Sequence record: PQ724392.1
Direction: 5' to 3' (one strand)
Source of the DNA: a phage
DNA length: 64,000 nt
In this document: in pieces, positions 1,272-12,273 of the stretch
Numbering within the stretch: the stretch's first letter is position 1
Layout: the number at the start of each line of letters is the position of its first letter
The notes under the pieces: model-generated
Seen by the model: only the letters and a program-made list of their open reading frames with translations
The model's database searches: none
What the model was told of the DNA's origin: nothing
Translations under genes and position numbers: made by a program

Positions 1272-1592
1272 TTATAGCGTAATCCATTCTCTGATAGTTT
1301 GGGTTACGACACGTTCTTGGAGCTTGACCAGTTCAACAGTCGGGACCATATGGTCCCAGTCGGTATGATAAGAGCCGGTACGAGTTTCGTTTACAGCCAC
1401 ATGTACATTATGTTTTTTGCTGAAATAAATTGCCTGGCGATATTGGTATTTGCCAGATTGTGTCCATTCGCCTAATTCAACCGGAACCAGGTAGTCCGAA
1501 AATTCAAACTCGTATGATTCAGTAAACGCATCATGGTCTTCAATGATTTCGCTTAAAACAGCATCAACATCTAATTCATTTTCAATAGTCAT
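1272..1592 (-). CDS. hypothetical acidic protein
   Basis: 106-aa ORF; ATGA overlap with upstream gene. Confidence 0.55.
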   Translation of the reverse strand: MTIENELDVDAVLSEIIEDHDAFTESYEFEFSDYLVPVELGEWTQSGKYQYRQAIYFSKKHNVHVAVNETRTGSYHTDWDHMVPTVELVKLQERVVTQTIREWITL

Positions 1593-1897
1593 TGGTCACT
1601 CCAATAGCTTGATACTTCAAAATCAGGCTCGCCGTCGTCCCAGTACCAGGGACCCACCGGATGCCAATCGCCATGCTTATCTTCTTCATATTCTATAGAT
1701 TCAAGCCCAACGTATTGCCATTGGACTTCATAAGCAGTACCGCCGATTACAACAGTGTTCTCACCATACGGGTTAGCCACAGCAAAGTCAATACCTTCTT
1801 CCTTTGCCAGGGCGACCATGTATTCGTATAGTTTATATTCCAGGTCGTCTTCGTTGCCATCGCCCAGATAAATTGTTTGTCCGTCTAATTCACTCAT
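1589..1897 (-). CDS. hypothetical protein
   Basis: 102-aa ORF, Trp/acidic rich. Confidence 0.55.
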   Translation of the reverse strand: MSELDGQTIYLGDGNEDDLEYKLYEYMVALAKEEGIDFAVANPYGENTVVIGGTAYEVQWQYVGLESIEYEEDKHGDWHPVGPWYWDDGEPDFEVSSYWSDQ

Positions 1898-2234: not shown

Positions 2235-2494
2235 TTAAAATATTCTCGCAGTTCAGTGAATCCGCCAATATGACTTCCGTCAGGAGCAAATACTTGCGGC
2301 ATGGTCAAACCAATTTGAGATTCGCGACCAAGTGCAGCCAGGAGTTGGGCAATCTTCTCATCATCAAACACACCTTTTTCTGGCATAACGTTGATGAACT
2401 CGTAAGGTTGTTTTTTAACATCCAAAAAACGTTTTGCATTATCGCAGAATACACAGCGATGAATAGATGAATCATAACCATATACTTTAAACAT
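2231..2494 (-). CDS. nrdC: Thioredoxin/glutaredoxin NrdC
   Basis: 87 aa; MFKVYGY...CVFCDNAK redox motif; close to remembered T4 NrdC. Confidence 0.85.
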   Translation of the reverse strand: MFKVYGYDSSIHRCVFCDNAKRFLDVKKQPYEFINVMPEKGVFDDEKIAQLLAALGRESQIGLTMPQVFAPDGSHIGGFTELREYFK

Positions 2495-2495
2495 A

Positions 2496-2738
2496 TTATT
2501 CCTTAATTCCTAATACTTGTTTGAAGGTCTCAGTATAATCGGGGTATTGACCGGTTTGTTCTTTATGTTTGACCATAATACCATAAACTTCTGAACGCAT
2601 ATTATTATATGAACGAGTTAAAGCAGATTTCAATACTGAATAACTATCCGGAAGTTTACCGTGTTCTTTATAATAGGCCAGAGTTAATTCACGGACCGCC
2701 TTATCAGCAGTCTCAAGATATTCTTTACGCTTTGCCAT
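2496..2738 (-). CDS. hypothetical protein
   Basis: 80-aa ORF. Confidence 0.5.
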
Positions 2739-8555: not shown

Positions 8556-9566
8556 TTAACGATAATAGGAATTGTGGTTGTCAAGATATACCTCTTCAAC
8601 AAACTTGTCCCAGAACTTCATGTCCACCTTCGCAGGCATACCGTTCTTAGCAGCCTGGATGGCCAGGACTTCAACTTCATCAACAGTATTTTCCAACAGG
8701 CCTTGAACTACTTTGAAAGGCATATCACCAGCTTTTATTGCTTTAATAATAGAAGCGTTTTTGAGCGGATAAACCAGGTCACCAGTTTGATAGATTTCCT
8801 TCAGCTGATATCCAGCTCGATAAGCATGGCTCAGAGCTTTCCAGTCAATACCTTCATTCGCTTCAGCCTTACGAGCACGTTCACCATATTCGGCATCAAG
8901 TTTATTCAGAGATTGCTTGAGCTCGATTAATGACAAAGTAGTTTGGTATTTACGACCGAGAATAGTATAGAACGTTTGAGGACCTGTTTTCTCATGGTTA
9001 TGAAATATCCATTCACAGAACTCGTTTTCAGGGAGTCTGTGTTTGATATCTTCTACCTTAGTACGTCGTTGCTTAGTAGAACCATCTTCTTGATAATCGA
9101 CCCATTGTTCAGGAATCTGGTTAACAATTTCCAATACACCACGCAGTGCAGCCAATCGAGAACCTTTAACACCATATTTGGAAGCTTGCTTACGGACGTA
9201 CCCCAAATAGGCTTTCATGTTAGTTGTATAGAACCGTGAACGGTTGTCCTGAATAAACTTCCATACATCTGGTAAATCGGATTTGACTACCAGGTCAGCC
9301 GGGGTGTGAATCATATCCAGAGCAACGGTTTCGCCATCGGCCGCCAGTTTAAAGAAATATTTCAGACTATAAAGTTCATGGTCAACATCATCTTTTGTAT
9401 TTTTGGTAGCCGTGTTATTCGTGTTCAGGTTTGTATGATTCATCGCGGTTCCGAGCAGGATATCTCGCGGATGTGGAACAAAGATTTCTTTAAAATCGAC
9501 ATCAGATTCTGGGGTACTTGTTCCATAAAGATGGCTACCGAAGTAGCCTTTCATAACTGTTCTCAT
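8556..9566 (-). CDS. nucleotidyltransferase-fold protein (Pol-beta/MNT-like motif)
   Basis: 336 aa; N-terminal YFGSHLYGTSTPESDVDF (GS, 10 residues, DxD) then helical region. Confidence 0.6.
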   Translation of the reverse strand: MRTVMKGYFGSHLYGTSTPESDVDFKEIFVPHPRDILLGTAMNHTNLNTNNTATKNTKDDVDHELYSLKYFFKLAADGETVALDMIHTPADLVVKSDLPDVWKFIQDNRSRFYTTNMKAYLGYVRKQASKYGVKGSRLAALRGVLEIVNQIPEQWVDYQEDGSTKQRRTKVEDIKHRLPENEFCEWIFHNHEKTGPQTFYTILGRKYQTTLSLIELKQSLNKLDAEYGERARKAEANEGIDWKALSHAYRAGYQLKEIYQTGDLVYPLKNASIIKAIKAGDMPFKVVQGLLENTVDEVEVLAIQAAKNGMPAKVDMKFWDKFVEEVYLDNHNSYYR

Positions 9567-10015
9567 TTCTTCGCCTCAAAATGGATTACTGGGCACATCT
9601 TAGATTTACGAGCTTTGATATATTGAATGAAAACATTTTCTTTAATTTCCTTTCCTTCACGTTTAGCTTTAATGCGTTCCCATTCTTTTTCTTCTTTACG
9701 TAAATCGTACCAGGCCCATAAATTCATTAGACCATACATTAGACCAAATGCTACCGTCAGAATAAGAGCCAGTGTAGCTAGTCCTAAAATAAACCCTAAA
9801 CCTAAACCGACCGGGGTGCTTAATACAAAGAAATGCTCTAATACACCTGCGCCCGCGACAGTTAATCCAAAAACCATACTACCGATAAAAACGGCACAAA
9901 CAAAACAAGCCCAAACCATTTTCCAGAAATAAGCACACAAAGAGTGTGGACGAGAATGACGGTCATAAAAACGGTCGTGGAAACGAGCGTGCCATGAGTT
10001 TGTATTGATAATCAT
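9563..10015 (-). CDS. membrane protein (2-3 TM) with charged C-terminal tail
   Basis: 150 aa; ATGA-coupled to the downstream nucleotidyltransferase gene. Confidence 0.55.
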   Translation of the reverse strand: MIINTNSWHARFHDRFYDRHSRPHSLCAYFWKMVWACFVCAVFIGSMVFGLTVAGAGVLEHFFVLSTPVGLGLGFILGLATLALILTVAFGLMYGLMNLWAWYDLRKEEKEWERIKAKREGKEIKENVFIQYIKARKSKMCPVIHFEAKK

Positions 10016-10026
10016 AATAATTTTCC

Positions 10027-10587
10027 TTAAGAGTTCATAGTTGGGATAACAGAGTTCAGATAAGAGACTAAAACTTTTAGCTCGTCCTTAGTAAATACCA
10101 CTTCACTTTCGCCGTCATGTCTTTGGACAATAGATAACAGGTCACGGCCGTTATGTTGATGCACAGTTAATTCAGTATTATAATCTAGTTCTTCTTCATC
10201 GCCTTCAAACGTTTCACTAGAGCGAATCAGTGCATCTTGTCCCGGAACTTTCCATTCAACTTCCGGTTTACATTCTTCCTGGAAGAGTTTGAAAATACAA
10301 TCAAAGAATTTATCAGAATCGCTAATGCTCAGGCATTCTATACCATTTTCCAGATTAAACCCATTTTCATTTTTATAGATATAAGCGTATAGCTCATCGT
10401 TAATATCGACAGGAGCACTGTTACGTCCATTGAGATAGTCAGCTCTATCCAAAACCATTAAATCATAAAGTGGTTTAATATCTTGGATAGTCAGTACGAT
10501 TTTATCGTCTTCTTGACAAAGCTCAATTGCGTTATTAACCACTTCAGCAGTCAGTTCGCCAAACAATTCAGTTGTTTCAATAATCAT
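10027..10587 (-). CDS. hypothetical acidic protein
   Basis: 186-aa ORF. Confidence 0.55.
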   Translation of the reverse strand: MIIETTELFGELTAEVVNNAIELCQEDDKIVLTIQDIKPLYDLMVLDRADYLNGRNSAPVDINDELYAYIYKNENGFNLENGIECLSISDSDKFFDCIFKLFQEECKPEVEWKVPGQDALIRSSETFEGDEEELDYNTELTVHQHNGRDLLSIVQRHDGESEVVFTKDELKVLVSYLNSVIPTMNS

Positions 10588-10597
10588 TTTCTGTTCC

Positions 10598-10813
10598 TCA
10601 ACGGTTATGTTTTAAAATACTATAAAGCGCTTCTACTTGGCTTGCATCCAGGTAAATAACATCATCATCTTGCTCAATGGAAATCCCACCGGTATTACCT
10701 TTAACAAAATTACATTCGCATACTTCAACTGGGCGGTATACGTCACCAACTGGATGCTCAGGCTCCAGAACAATCACACCATTTTCAGAATTACCGCTTG
10801 GGTCATATAACAT
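10598..10813 (-). CDS. hypothetical protein (start trimmed)
   Basis: ATG at 10813 with GAGGAAAA RBS. Confidence 0.4.
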   Translation of the reverse strand: MLYDPSGNSENGVIVLEPEHPVGDVYRPVEVCECNFVKGNTGGISIEQDDDVIYLDASQVEALYSILKHNR

Positions 10814-10904
10814 TACATTTTCCTCACTAACCACGAAAAGAATAAACCGATTAAAATAGGACCTATAATCATTGTTGACCAAGCCCAGGGTTCTAAGTAA
10901 TAAA

Positions 10905-11162
10905 TCATCTCATGCTCCTGTGCCAACAATTTCTTGGTTCACGTTTAAAAATTTCATCATGCATTGATTGACAACCAACACAATATATCACACCTTTAAT
11001 CGCTTGTCTCCGCGCTTCAGGAATTTTTTCGTCGCAGTCAAAACAGAATTCAGCAGACTCCCTTTCAACTGCAACTTGTGCTCGTGCGTGAACGATAGCG
11101 GCTTGGACAACCGCTTCCATCTCTAACTGTTCAGCACCATCTTTTGTAAATCCAACAGCCAT
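10905..11162 (-). CDS. DksA/TraR-family C4 zinc-finger protein
   Basis: 85 aa; CFDCDEKIPEARRQAIKGVIYCVGCQ fits the TraR/DksA zinc-finger pattern. Confidence 0.6.
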   Translation of the reverse strand: MAVGFTKDGAEQLEMEAVVQAAIVHARAQVAVERESAEFCFDCDEKIPEARRQAIKGVIYCVGCQSMHDEIFKREPRNCWHRSMR

Positions 11163-11344
11163 TATGCTTTCAACTCATTCAGATACTCAACCATGGCTGC
11201 TTTAGAGTTAGCCAAATCTCGTTTACACTGCTCTATTCCGGAATATGAATAGCCTTCACAATGTTCGACTGCAATATCATAAGAATCGCGTTCAATAGCA
11301 GTAGCAAGTTTAAGGATTTTTTCAATCTGTTCAGTAGTTAACAT
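11162..11344 (-). CDS. hypothetical protein
   Basis: 60-aa ORF. Confidence 0.45.
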   Translation of the reverse strand: MLTTEQIEKILKLATAIERDSYDIAVEHCEGYSYSGIEQCKRDLANSKAAMVEYLNELKA

Positions 11345-11348
11345 AATA

Positions 11349-11585
11349 TCACCAGTATTTTTTGATGGTAGAAATTAATTCTTGAGCTTGAGTGGTCTTC
11401 AGCTTACACCCACAACCCTTTAAGGTATCTTTAAGGAGCCATGGCTCCTTGAGCTCGTCCTTTTCCAGTCGGATTCTATATCCGCGGTAATCAGCAAATA
11501 TGCTTCCGTCATCAAATATCTTAATTTCAAGAATATGATTATTGGTTTCATATTCTAATGAAACCATGGTATTTGTAAGTTTCAT
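11349..11585 (-). CDS. hypothetical protein (start trimmed)
   Basis: ATG at 11585 forms TAATG junction with upstream ORF. Confidence 0.45.
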   Translation of the reverse strand: MKLTNTMVSLEYETNNHILEIKIFDDGSIFADYRGYRIRLEKDELKEPWLLKDTLKGCGCKLKTTQAQELISTIKKYW

Positions 11586-11791
11586 TATTCCACCACATAT
11601 GATAATGAGAAAATTGCCGATGAAAGATGAGTAGCATCTTCTTCGCACAGTTCAAATGGAGCTTTCTGTAAGAGTTCAACCACTTCTTCATCAGTGGCAC
11701 TGTCCATAAAGATTGCATAATCATTAAGATAGATAACAACCTCATCACCAGTATTAACTGCATCAATCTTGATATTTTTAATTCTCATCAT
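11585..11791 (-). CDS. hypothetical acidic protein
   Basis: 68 aa; GAGGAG RBS; promoter upstream. Confidence 0.5.
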   Translation of the reverse strand: MMRIKNIKIDAVNTGDEVVIYLNDYAIFMDSATDEEVVELLQKAPFELCEEDATHLSSAIFSLSYVVE

Positions 11792-11816
11792 GTTCTCCTC
11801 AGTAGTTGATGGGATA

Positions 11817-11846
11817 ATAGTACACCCTTTTTATGAGGATGTAAAC
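11817..11846 (-). promoter_or_regulatory. early promoter (GTTTAC, 18 nt, TACTAT)
   Basis: minus-strand reading. Confidence 0.45.
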
Positions 11847-11858
11847 CCCCTAAATGAA

Positions 11859-11886
11859 AAAAGGTCCACCCGAAGGCAGACCTTTT
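11859..11886 (-). terminator. rho-independent terminator
   Basis: GC stem with TTCG-like loop followed by U-run on minus strand. Confidence 0.5.
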
Positions 11887-11889
11887 GAA

Positions 11890-12273
11890 TTACTCTAGTG
11901 TTAACAGATACTTAGTCTGAAAGAAAACTCCAACGATATCGTCCAGAGTCGATTGAATAGCCTTAGGTACAACTTTATAGACTCTTTCCGAGCTTTTAAT
12001 CATTTCATCTAAAAACAAAATTGTATCTTTCGGCAAGTCCGAGGCGGACGGTAATGCAGCTTTGTATTGTTTCCCGCTGTAACCTAACCATTGCTCACTG
12101 AACTGGTCGAGTGGACCTTGGATTTCTGTGAAGTAGAAATCATAAGCTTTATGGCGGGCGTAACTTTTGGTTTCAAGATGGGCAGATTTAAAATAAGCCA
12201 AAGAGACTAACAACCACCCAATATATGAATCCACCTCAGACCCACGACCCGTTACGAAATCATCAAATTTCAT
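11890..12273 (-). CDS. hypothetical protein
   Basis: 127-aa ORF. Confidence 0.5.
   Translation of the reverse strand: MKFDDFVTGRGSEVDSYIGWLLVSLAYFKSAHLETKSYARHKAYDFYFTEIQGPLDQFSEQWLGYSGKQYKAALPSASDLPKDTILFLDEMIKSSERVYKVVPKAIQSTLDDIVGVFFQTKYLLTLE

Follow-up and report, generated by a model that had tools for sequence, protein, structure and literature searches.

A small zinc-finger protein of apparent YbiI type encoded in the mobD-rI region of a T4-like phage

The window analysed here is a stretch of 64,000 nucleotides of phage DNA (PQ724392.1). Across bases 10000-12000 it shares 97% identity with Yersinia phage vB_YenM_P8 and with Escherichia phage EAWsc9, both classified as Straboviridae, Tevenvirinae, Gaprivervirus, and 85-93% with SP18, VR7, VR20 and others. 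Judged by these identities, the window belongs to a T4-like phage of the Straboviridae. A preliminary description had drawn attention to an 85-aa open reading frame at positions 10905-11162 as a possible DksA/TraR-type zinc-finger gene. These coordinates proved exact, the stop codon being counted, and the strand, which had been left unstated, is the minus strand. The gene and two putative transcription signals upstream of it are as follows.

10905..11162, minus strand: zinc-finger coding sequence, 85 aa, ATG start, TGA stop at 10905..10907 included
11817..11845, minus strand: candidate sigma-70-type promoter, (G)TTTACA-17-TACTAT, a weak site with 9/12 consensus matches
11859..11886, minus strand: terminator-like hairpin, 12 bp stem then a T run, AAAAGGTCTGCCTTCGGGTGGACCTTTTTT, directly past the rI.-1-like gene

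The translation of the frame is MAVGFTKDGAEQLEMEAVVQAAIVHARAQVAVERESAEFCFDCDEKIPEARRQAIKGVIYCVGCQSMHDEIFKREPRNCWHRSMR. Residues 40-65, CFDCDEKIPEARRQAIKGVIYCVGCQ, contain Cys 40, 43, 61 and 64 in a CxxC-17-CxxC arrangement and are the four-cysteine string that the preliminary description had quoted. The ATG start shares one base with the stop codon of the upstream gene (TAATG, in the context GCA TAATG GCT), and the stop codon overlaps the start of a small downstream ORF (ATGA). These overlaps represent the tight packing typical of phage early-gene blocks.

Several lines of evidence indicate that the frame is not a product of chance. The Pfam profile named in the preliminary description, PF01258 (zf-dskA_traR), matches residues 38-66 with 36.2 bits (E 6e-9), compared with a curated gathering score of 24.9 bits. 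PHROG 54, 'DksA-like zinc-finger protein', matches with an E value of 4e-20, and 681 phage records contain relatives according to tblastn. Across 40 aligned homologues the four cysteines, I47, P48, R51, R52 and Q65 are invariant and E49 is conserved in at least 90%. Finally, dN/dS between the gene and its copy in Citrobacter phage Moon is 0.15 (Nei-Gojobori). The gene is real and under purifying selection. Additional Pfam matches to ArfGap and DZR fell under their own cut-offs and were set aside as generic zinc-ribbon similarity. A match of residues 57-85 to phrog_25948 was ruled out as a second domain, that family consisting of truncated chimeras which are described below.

The surrounding genes correspond to the tk / rI.1 / rI / rI.-1 / mobD.x block of T4. 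Pfam and PHROGs identified among the neighbours thymidine kinase, antiholin rI, DUF5856 (rI.-1), DUF7438, y05I and a nucleotidyltransferase. Direct comparison with T4 equated DUF7438 with mobD.3 (66% identity), the ORF at 11585..11791 (68 aa) with mobD.5 and y05I with mobD.1. A tblastn search of the T4 mobD-tk region revealed neither a homologue nor a remnant of the zinc-finger gene; between mobD.3 and mobD.1, T4 has mobD.2a and mobD.2 instead. The comparison with T4-type genomes that had been suggested earlier thus gives a divided picture, T4 being devoid of the gene and many other Straboviridae and some jumbo phages carrying one. In the present T4-like coliphage it counts as an accessory gene of the variable mobD-rI region.

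Three further genes nearby deserve mention. The 78-aa gene at 11349..11585 (minus strand, phrog_10363) starts at the ATG at 11585, where it forms a TAATG overlap with the previous stop, and the GTG start at 11648 in the ORF list is incorrect. The mobD region of T4 contains mobD.4 at this place and no counterpart of the 78-aa gene. A 336-aa RlaP/Pol-beta-type nucleotidyltransferase (8556..9566, minus strand; PHROG 388, E 2e-129) appears in the EAWsc9 annotation among uncharacterised proteins of the T4 nrdC-mobD intergenic region. The gene before it encodes a 150-aa membrane protein (9563..10015, minus strand; PHROG 944), which is mislabelled 'oleosin' in one record.

The hairpin at 11859..11886 likely ends the rI.-1-like gene and sets the 5' limit of the transcription unit to which the zinc-finger gene belongs. 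Terminator-like sites are more frequent in the region than expected (9 observed, 3.1 expected). The candidate promoter is proposed from its position only, since sigma-70-like sites are no commoner than in shuffled sequences (14 vs 13.1). It lies just past the hairpin in the sole sizeable upstream intergenic gap and is followed by a GAGGAG ribosome-binding site. Hairpin, sigma-70-like site and GAGGAG precede about nine head-to-tail genes including the zinc-finger gene, and positions 11817..11886 on the minus strand are likely a terminator-promoter junction heading this block.

On the downstream side, a 31-aa hydrophobic ORF, MIYYLEPWAWSTMIIGPILIGLFFSWLVRKM, is situated between the zinc-finger and DUF7189 genes (10813..10908, minus strand). 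Its ATG overlaps the zinc-finger stop codon (ATGA), its TAA overlaps the next ATG (TAATG), and an AGGAG is found 8 nt before its start, within the zinc-finger coding sequence. The ORF carries no annotation in the closest record, EAWsc9, and is conserved, with a pN/pS of 0.29, in Mosigvirus ST0, whose annotation starts it at a TTG (37 aa). It likely encodes a real small membrane protein. For the DUF7189 gene (10598..10882, minus strand) the ORF list gives a TTG start at 10882 and a product of 94 aa. Pfam and PHROG matches begin only at residue 24, and the gene almost certainly begins at the ATG at 10813 instead, giving 71 aa, in agreement with the annotations of EAWsc9 and ST0.

The genes to which the zinc-finger gene is translationally coupled differ between the window, Citrobacter phage Moon, jumbo phage UE-S1 and Aeromonas phage SW69-9. 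Because the neighbours change from phage to phage, the gene apparently moves as a single-gene cassette. A conserved partner gene of the kind represented by QisA and TraR in phage VP882 was considered and rejected on the basis of the same four phages, and a partner encoded next door is unlikely. In UE-S1 (Asteriusvirus, about 350 kb) the copy, at 1501..1758 of the locus, is 64% identical, has the same invariant ends and is embedded among unrelated neighbours. A similar copy in unrelated surroundings indicates that this one gene has been exchanged horizontally among unrelated lineages of phages infecting Enterobacteriaceae.

A different fate is seen in Mosigvirus phages. About 25 records, for example ST0, contain at the same position a chimeric ORF of 54-55 aa (phrog_25948). 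The ST0 chimera is located at 2459..2626 of the locus and corresponds to window positions 10905..10991. Its first approximately 26 codons duplicate the 5' end of the downstream DUF7189 gene, and from codon V58 onwards it consists of the last 28 codons of the zinc-finger gene with about 99% DNA identity, the breakpoint being sharp. Just two of the four cysteines are kept, and one variant is without a further one. The chimera is the truncated remnant of a recombination event. Since T4 is without the gene and Mosigvirus retains a truncated remnant alone, the zinc-finger gene is dispensable.

The family assignment as such is already known. At 97-99% identity the gene is labelled TraR/DksA-type in GenBank, the closest records reading "TraR family C-4 type zinc finger protein" or "dksA: DksA C4-type domain-containing protein", and PHROGs has a family for it; the annotated dksA CDS of EAWsc9 encodes a protein that is 98.8% identical. 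By its sequence, the protein is a member of the DksA/TraR C4 zinc-finger superfamily. The earlier proposal to this effect is borne out by the Pfam score above cut-off, by sequence similarity to YbiI and TraR chains of known structure and by the predicted fold, and the finger spacing, on which the proposal might have foundered, equals that of TraR (C37, C40, C58, C61).

Within the superfamily, E. coli YbiI (PDB 2KGO) is the closest relative of known structure (E 4e-9, the alignment starting at Met1), followed by TraR (5W1S and 6N57, chains 5W1S_M and 6N57_M, E 2e-4; HMMER alignments). The top NCBIfam score was obtained with PRK11019, the YbiI equivalog (74.1 bits over residues 1-71, cut-off 96). 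TIGR02419 (C4_traR_proteo; 52.2 bits, cut-off 59.7), the TraR equivalog PRK13715 (29.5 bits, cut-off 108) and the DksA_like equivalog (12.8 bits, cut-off 105) scored lower and also under their cut-offs. As no curated NCBIfam sub-family threshold is reached, the protein belongs to a separate phage clade nearest YbiI, and it appears to be of the YbiI type rather than of the TraR or DksA type. The YbiI-type subfamily was defined from sequence in this analysis. A profile search of 1.84 billion cluster representatives returned 3002 relatives at E <= 1e-3 and 294 at E <= 1e-10. Among the 148 nearest representatives (50%-identity clusters), 115 start with MAxG[FWY]xx[DE]x[AG] and just 5 have DxxDxA. 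The N-terminal motif, as MAxG[FW]xxD(G)A, is also present in YbiI (2KGO). In the phage clade both ends, MAVGF(A/T)KDGAEQ at the N terminus and FKRxPRNCWHRSMR at the C terminus, show almost no variation between Gaprivervirus, Moonvirus and the 350-kb Asteriusvirus jumbo phages, the last of whose copies are 64% identical overall.

YbiI is also the closest known system in other respects. It is the top match in both sequence and Foldseek comparisons, is of similar length (88 vs 85 aa), and shares MAxG[WF]xxDxA, CxxC-17-CxxC, IPxARR and a basic tail ending in [LM]R. The differences are an identity of only about 36-45%, a score below the cut-off of PRK11019 ('DksA/TraR family C4-type zinc finger protein') and a tail of the type FKRxPRNCWHRSMR instead of GYNRRGSKDSQLR. 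Moreover, ybiI is chromosomal and sigma-S-dependent, whereas the phage gene comes from a lytic phage.

The following segments of the protein are relevant to its possible function.

11133..11162, minus strand: subfamily N-terminal motif MAxG[FW]xxDGA, codons 1-10, here MAVGFTKDGA
11073..11144, minus strand: long N-terminal helix predicted by AlphaFold2, codons 7-30, counterpart of TraR residues 2-27
10971..11045, minus strand: C4 zinc ribbon CxxC-17-CxxC, codons 40-64, C40/C43/C61/C64
10950..10979, minus strand: C-terminal helix predicted by AlphaFold2, codons 62-71, positional counterpart of that of TraR
10908..10949, minus strand: basic tail FKREPRNCWHRSMR, codons 72-85, invariant in the phage clade and predicted to be disordered

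For the comparison with TraR, the F-plasmid sequence was checked against plasmid traR genes (at least 98.6% over all 73 residues), and the lambda Orf73 sequence was taken directly from the lambda genome. In the MAFFT alignment D8, A10, R51, R52 and the cysteines do not vary among the phage, bacterial, TraR and Orf73 sequences, and D8 and A10 align with D6 and A8 of both TraR and Orf73. The first Asp of the DxxDxA motif is absent. Counting back without gaps from D8, F5 stands at the position of TraR D3, the motif thus reading F5-T-K-D8-G-A10. Position 5 is an invariant Phe in the phage clade and a Trp in the bacterial relatives. Seven residues precede the conserved Asp, compared with five in TraR. 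In the zinc domain, I47-P48-E49-A50-R51-R52 matches I44-P45-E46-A47-R48-R49 of TraR, so that equivalents of P45, E46 and the R48/R49 pair are all kept; TraR P43 and K50 are not conserved and correspond to K46 and Q53.

An AlphaFold2 model built from a 40-sequence alignment (mean pLDDT 71.6) comprises a helix 7-30, the zinc ribbon, a helix 62-71 and a tail of low confidence. Confidence is also low at the N terminus, with a mean pLDDT of 53 for residues 1-10 and residues 1-6 themselves in the low range. Foldseek against the PDB ranked YbiI first (E 3.5e-5) and matched DksA weakly (E 0.1-2). The model superposes on RNA polymerase (RNAP)-bound TraR chains with an rmsd of 2.6-2.8 Å over 66 columns and TM 0.63-0.67 (6N57_M 2.6 Å). 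The C-terminal helix is unlike that of TraR in sequence and is a prediction of this model at a mean pLDDT of 71.6.

The 14-residue tail (consensus FKRxPRNCWHRSMR, pLDDT 48-57) is absent from TraR, and in the phage clade no other segment is as conserved. It appears to be a diverged form of the bacterial YbiI-type tail ...NRRGSKDSQLR, a type that ends 47-58 of the 148 nearest representatives. Phage RNCWHRSMR aligns with the bacterial tail through a common N, a basic residue, an S and a terminal [LM]R, and an intermediate exists in P0088 (...HNRKVWHRSMR). Compared with UE-S1, the last 15 codons show a pS of 0.80, which is near saturation, and the sole amino-acid changes are I71T and E75D. Conservation of the tail acts at the protein level. 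The idea that the tail is kept merely through its overlap with the ribosome-binding site and start of the downstream ORF was discarded, as UE-S1 has no such ORF and yet keeps the tail.

TraR offers the best-studied framework for interpreting these features. Its N-terminal helix, residues 2-27, runs down the secondary channel, E46, R49 and K50 lie at beta-prime Si3, and its C-terminal helix (residues 58-73) contacts beta Si1 (PMC9239242, PMC6970531). TraR needs D3 and D6 of the DxxDxA tip motif, and R48 contacts the rim helices (PMC9239242, PMC6970531); S2 is 4.3 Å from the catalytic Mg2+ (PMC6970531). Binding to RNAP and inhibition of rrnB P1 have been found for all five tested homologues, which come from lambda, P2, VHML, VP882 and a Xenorhabdus prophage (PMC9239242). 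To judge from the alignment, the residues that contact RNAP in TraR seem to be exactly those that are invariant or nearly so in the zinc-finger protein.

We consider a TraR-like secondary-channel protein of the YbiI type, which would modulate host transcription initiation independently of ppGpp, to be the best explanation and assign it a probability of roughly 0.6. Binding in the RNAP secondary channel, to which the preliminary description had pointed, is the most likely mechanism; we infer both the binding and the direction of its effect. The N-terminal helix (residues 7-30) would enter the secondary channel of the host RNA polymerase and bring the helix tip, that is D8, A10 and the subfamily-specific MAVGF end, near the active site. 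The zinc domain would dock on the beta-prime rim helices and Si3 via P48, E49, R51 and R52, and modulation of initiation without a need for ppGpp may follow from this binding. Because a Phe replaces the first Asp, two residues are added at the N terminus and a basic tail is present, the activity may be weaker than or different from that of TraR. In favour of the mechanism, Gp34, which is also without the first Asp, still binds as well as TraR, and it inhibits with an IC50 of 415 nM compared with about 50 nM for TraR, being about eight-fold less potent (PMC9239242). A D3N exchange in lambda Orf73 strongly reduced inhibition, the first Asp being needed for full activity of TraR and Orf73 (PMC9239242). 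The N-terminal extension of VHML Orf8 and the missing D3 of Gp34 have both been suggested to contribute to lower TraR-type activity (PMC9239242).

Published evidence on YbiI itself is sparse. YbiI is known as a sigma-S-dependent gene (sigma-S regulon paper), and at high expression it is reported to rescue dksA auxotrophy, as 'data not shown', by authors who favoured a role in iron metabolism (PMC2613031). Beyond this rescue statement, we found no published evidence for RNAP binding by YbiI-type proteins (PMC2613031). A literature search for YbiI together with RNA polymerase and zinc yielded one unrelated promoter survey and nothing relevant, and a search for DksA-like proteins of T4-like phages found no paper. 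Among C4 members of the superfamily with intermediate length, some lack DksA- or TraR-like activity. Counted against the best explanation are the incomplete DxxDxA motif, the NCBIfam scores below cut-off, the loss of P43 and K50, the dispensability of the gene, and a tail that has neither a TraR counterpart nor a known partner.

The same observations can be read differently. If the YbiI types, the phage clade included, act off RNAP, the zinc ribbon and tail would have a different binding partner, for example nucleic acid, the ribosome or a protein of the stress response or of metal homeostasis, and only the fold would be shared with TraR. YbiI is functionally uncharacterised, some C4 proteins of the superfamily have no DksA-like function, and the most conserved segment of the phage clade is precisely the 14-residue tail without TraR equivalent, all of which is compatible with a target of this kind. 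However, the equivalents of the TraR contact residues P45, E46, R48, R49, D6 and A8 are invariant or nearly so, the predicted architecture matches that of RNAP-bound TraR, and overexpressed YbiI is reported to rescue dksA auxotrophy (PMC2613031), so that we regard a non-RNAP target as unlikely. Improbable, too, is that the protein enters the channel but differs from TraR there, acting as a blocker or competitor that excludes DksA, GreA and GreB and not as a ppGpp-mimicking allosteric regulator. With an N terminus two residues longer and an aromatic residue for the first Asp, the protein might extend as far as the active-site region or block it. The prevalence of the N-terminal motif over DxxDxA among the nearest representatives (115/148 vs 5/148) fits this idea, as do the seven residues before D8 against five before TraR D6, the location of TraR S2 only 4.3 Å from Mg2+ (PMC6970531), and the proposal that the Orf8 extension and the missing D3 of Gp34 lower TraR-type activity (PMC9239242). 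On the other hand, residues 1-6 are of low confidence in the model, and D8 and A10, which are common to the TraR and DksA tips, are kept, consistent with a TraR-like tip interaction.

The absence of the gene from T4, the 54-55 aa Mosigvirus chimera with its variant that has lost a further Cys, and the position in a hypervariable region whose neighbours differ between phages might suggest a decaying passenger gene with no current function in the phage. This is the least likely alternative and in our view very improbable, because the frame is intact with a dN/dS of 0.15, the functional residues are all invariant in phage homologues down to about 60% identity, jumbo phages included, and the amino acids of the tail are kept while synonymous sites are saturated.

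Like TraR, the zinc-finger protein is small, has one helix and a zinc ribbon with identical Cys spacing, and superposes in the model at 2.6-2.8 Å; like the tested homologues lambda Orf73, P2 Orf82, VHML Orf8, VP882 Orf61 and X. bovienii Gp34 it is phage-borne. It differs from F-plasmid TraR (5W1S, 6N57) and these homologues by an identity of 28-30% and the Phe for the first Asp, and from TraR by two extra N-terminal residues and the 14-residue conserved tail past the C-terminal helix. Furthermore, the tested homologues originate from temperate phages, prophages or plasmids, whereas the zinc-finger gene resides in a T4-like lytic phage. With E. coli DksA (1TJL, 5VSW, 7KHI) it shares the Pfam domain, the Cys spacing and the tip Asp and Ala, which are D74 and A76 in DksA. 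In contrast to the 85 residues and single N-terminal helix of the phage protein, DksA has 151 residues and a two-helix coiled coil, and needs ppGpp.

In summary, this is an ordinary gene, and the point worth keeping is its membership of a YbiI-type branch with a distinct N terminus and tail. The phage TraR homologues tested so far are those of temperate phages and prophages that carry DxxDxA or nearly so. It is a speculative and rather doubtful thought that the YbiI branch represents a distinct class of secondary-channel factors, in which MAxG[FW] reaches the catalytic centre differently and the tail engages a second site or partner. If this were true, lytic T4-like and jumbo phages would gain an undescribed tool for host shutoff or channel blocking, and the function of E. 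coli YbiI would be revealed. The YbiI-type branch is large, with 294 representatives at E <= 1e-10, and occurs in many Straboviridae and jumbo phages. The activity of one of its members would bear on whether strictly lytic T4-like phages reprogram RNAP via the secondary channel, and on the role of YbiI.
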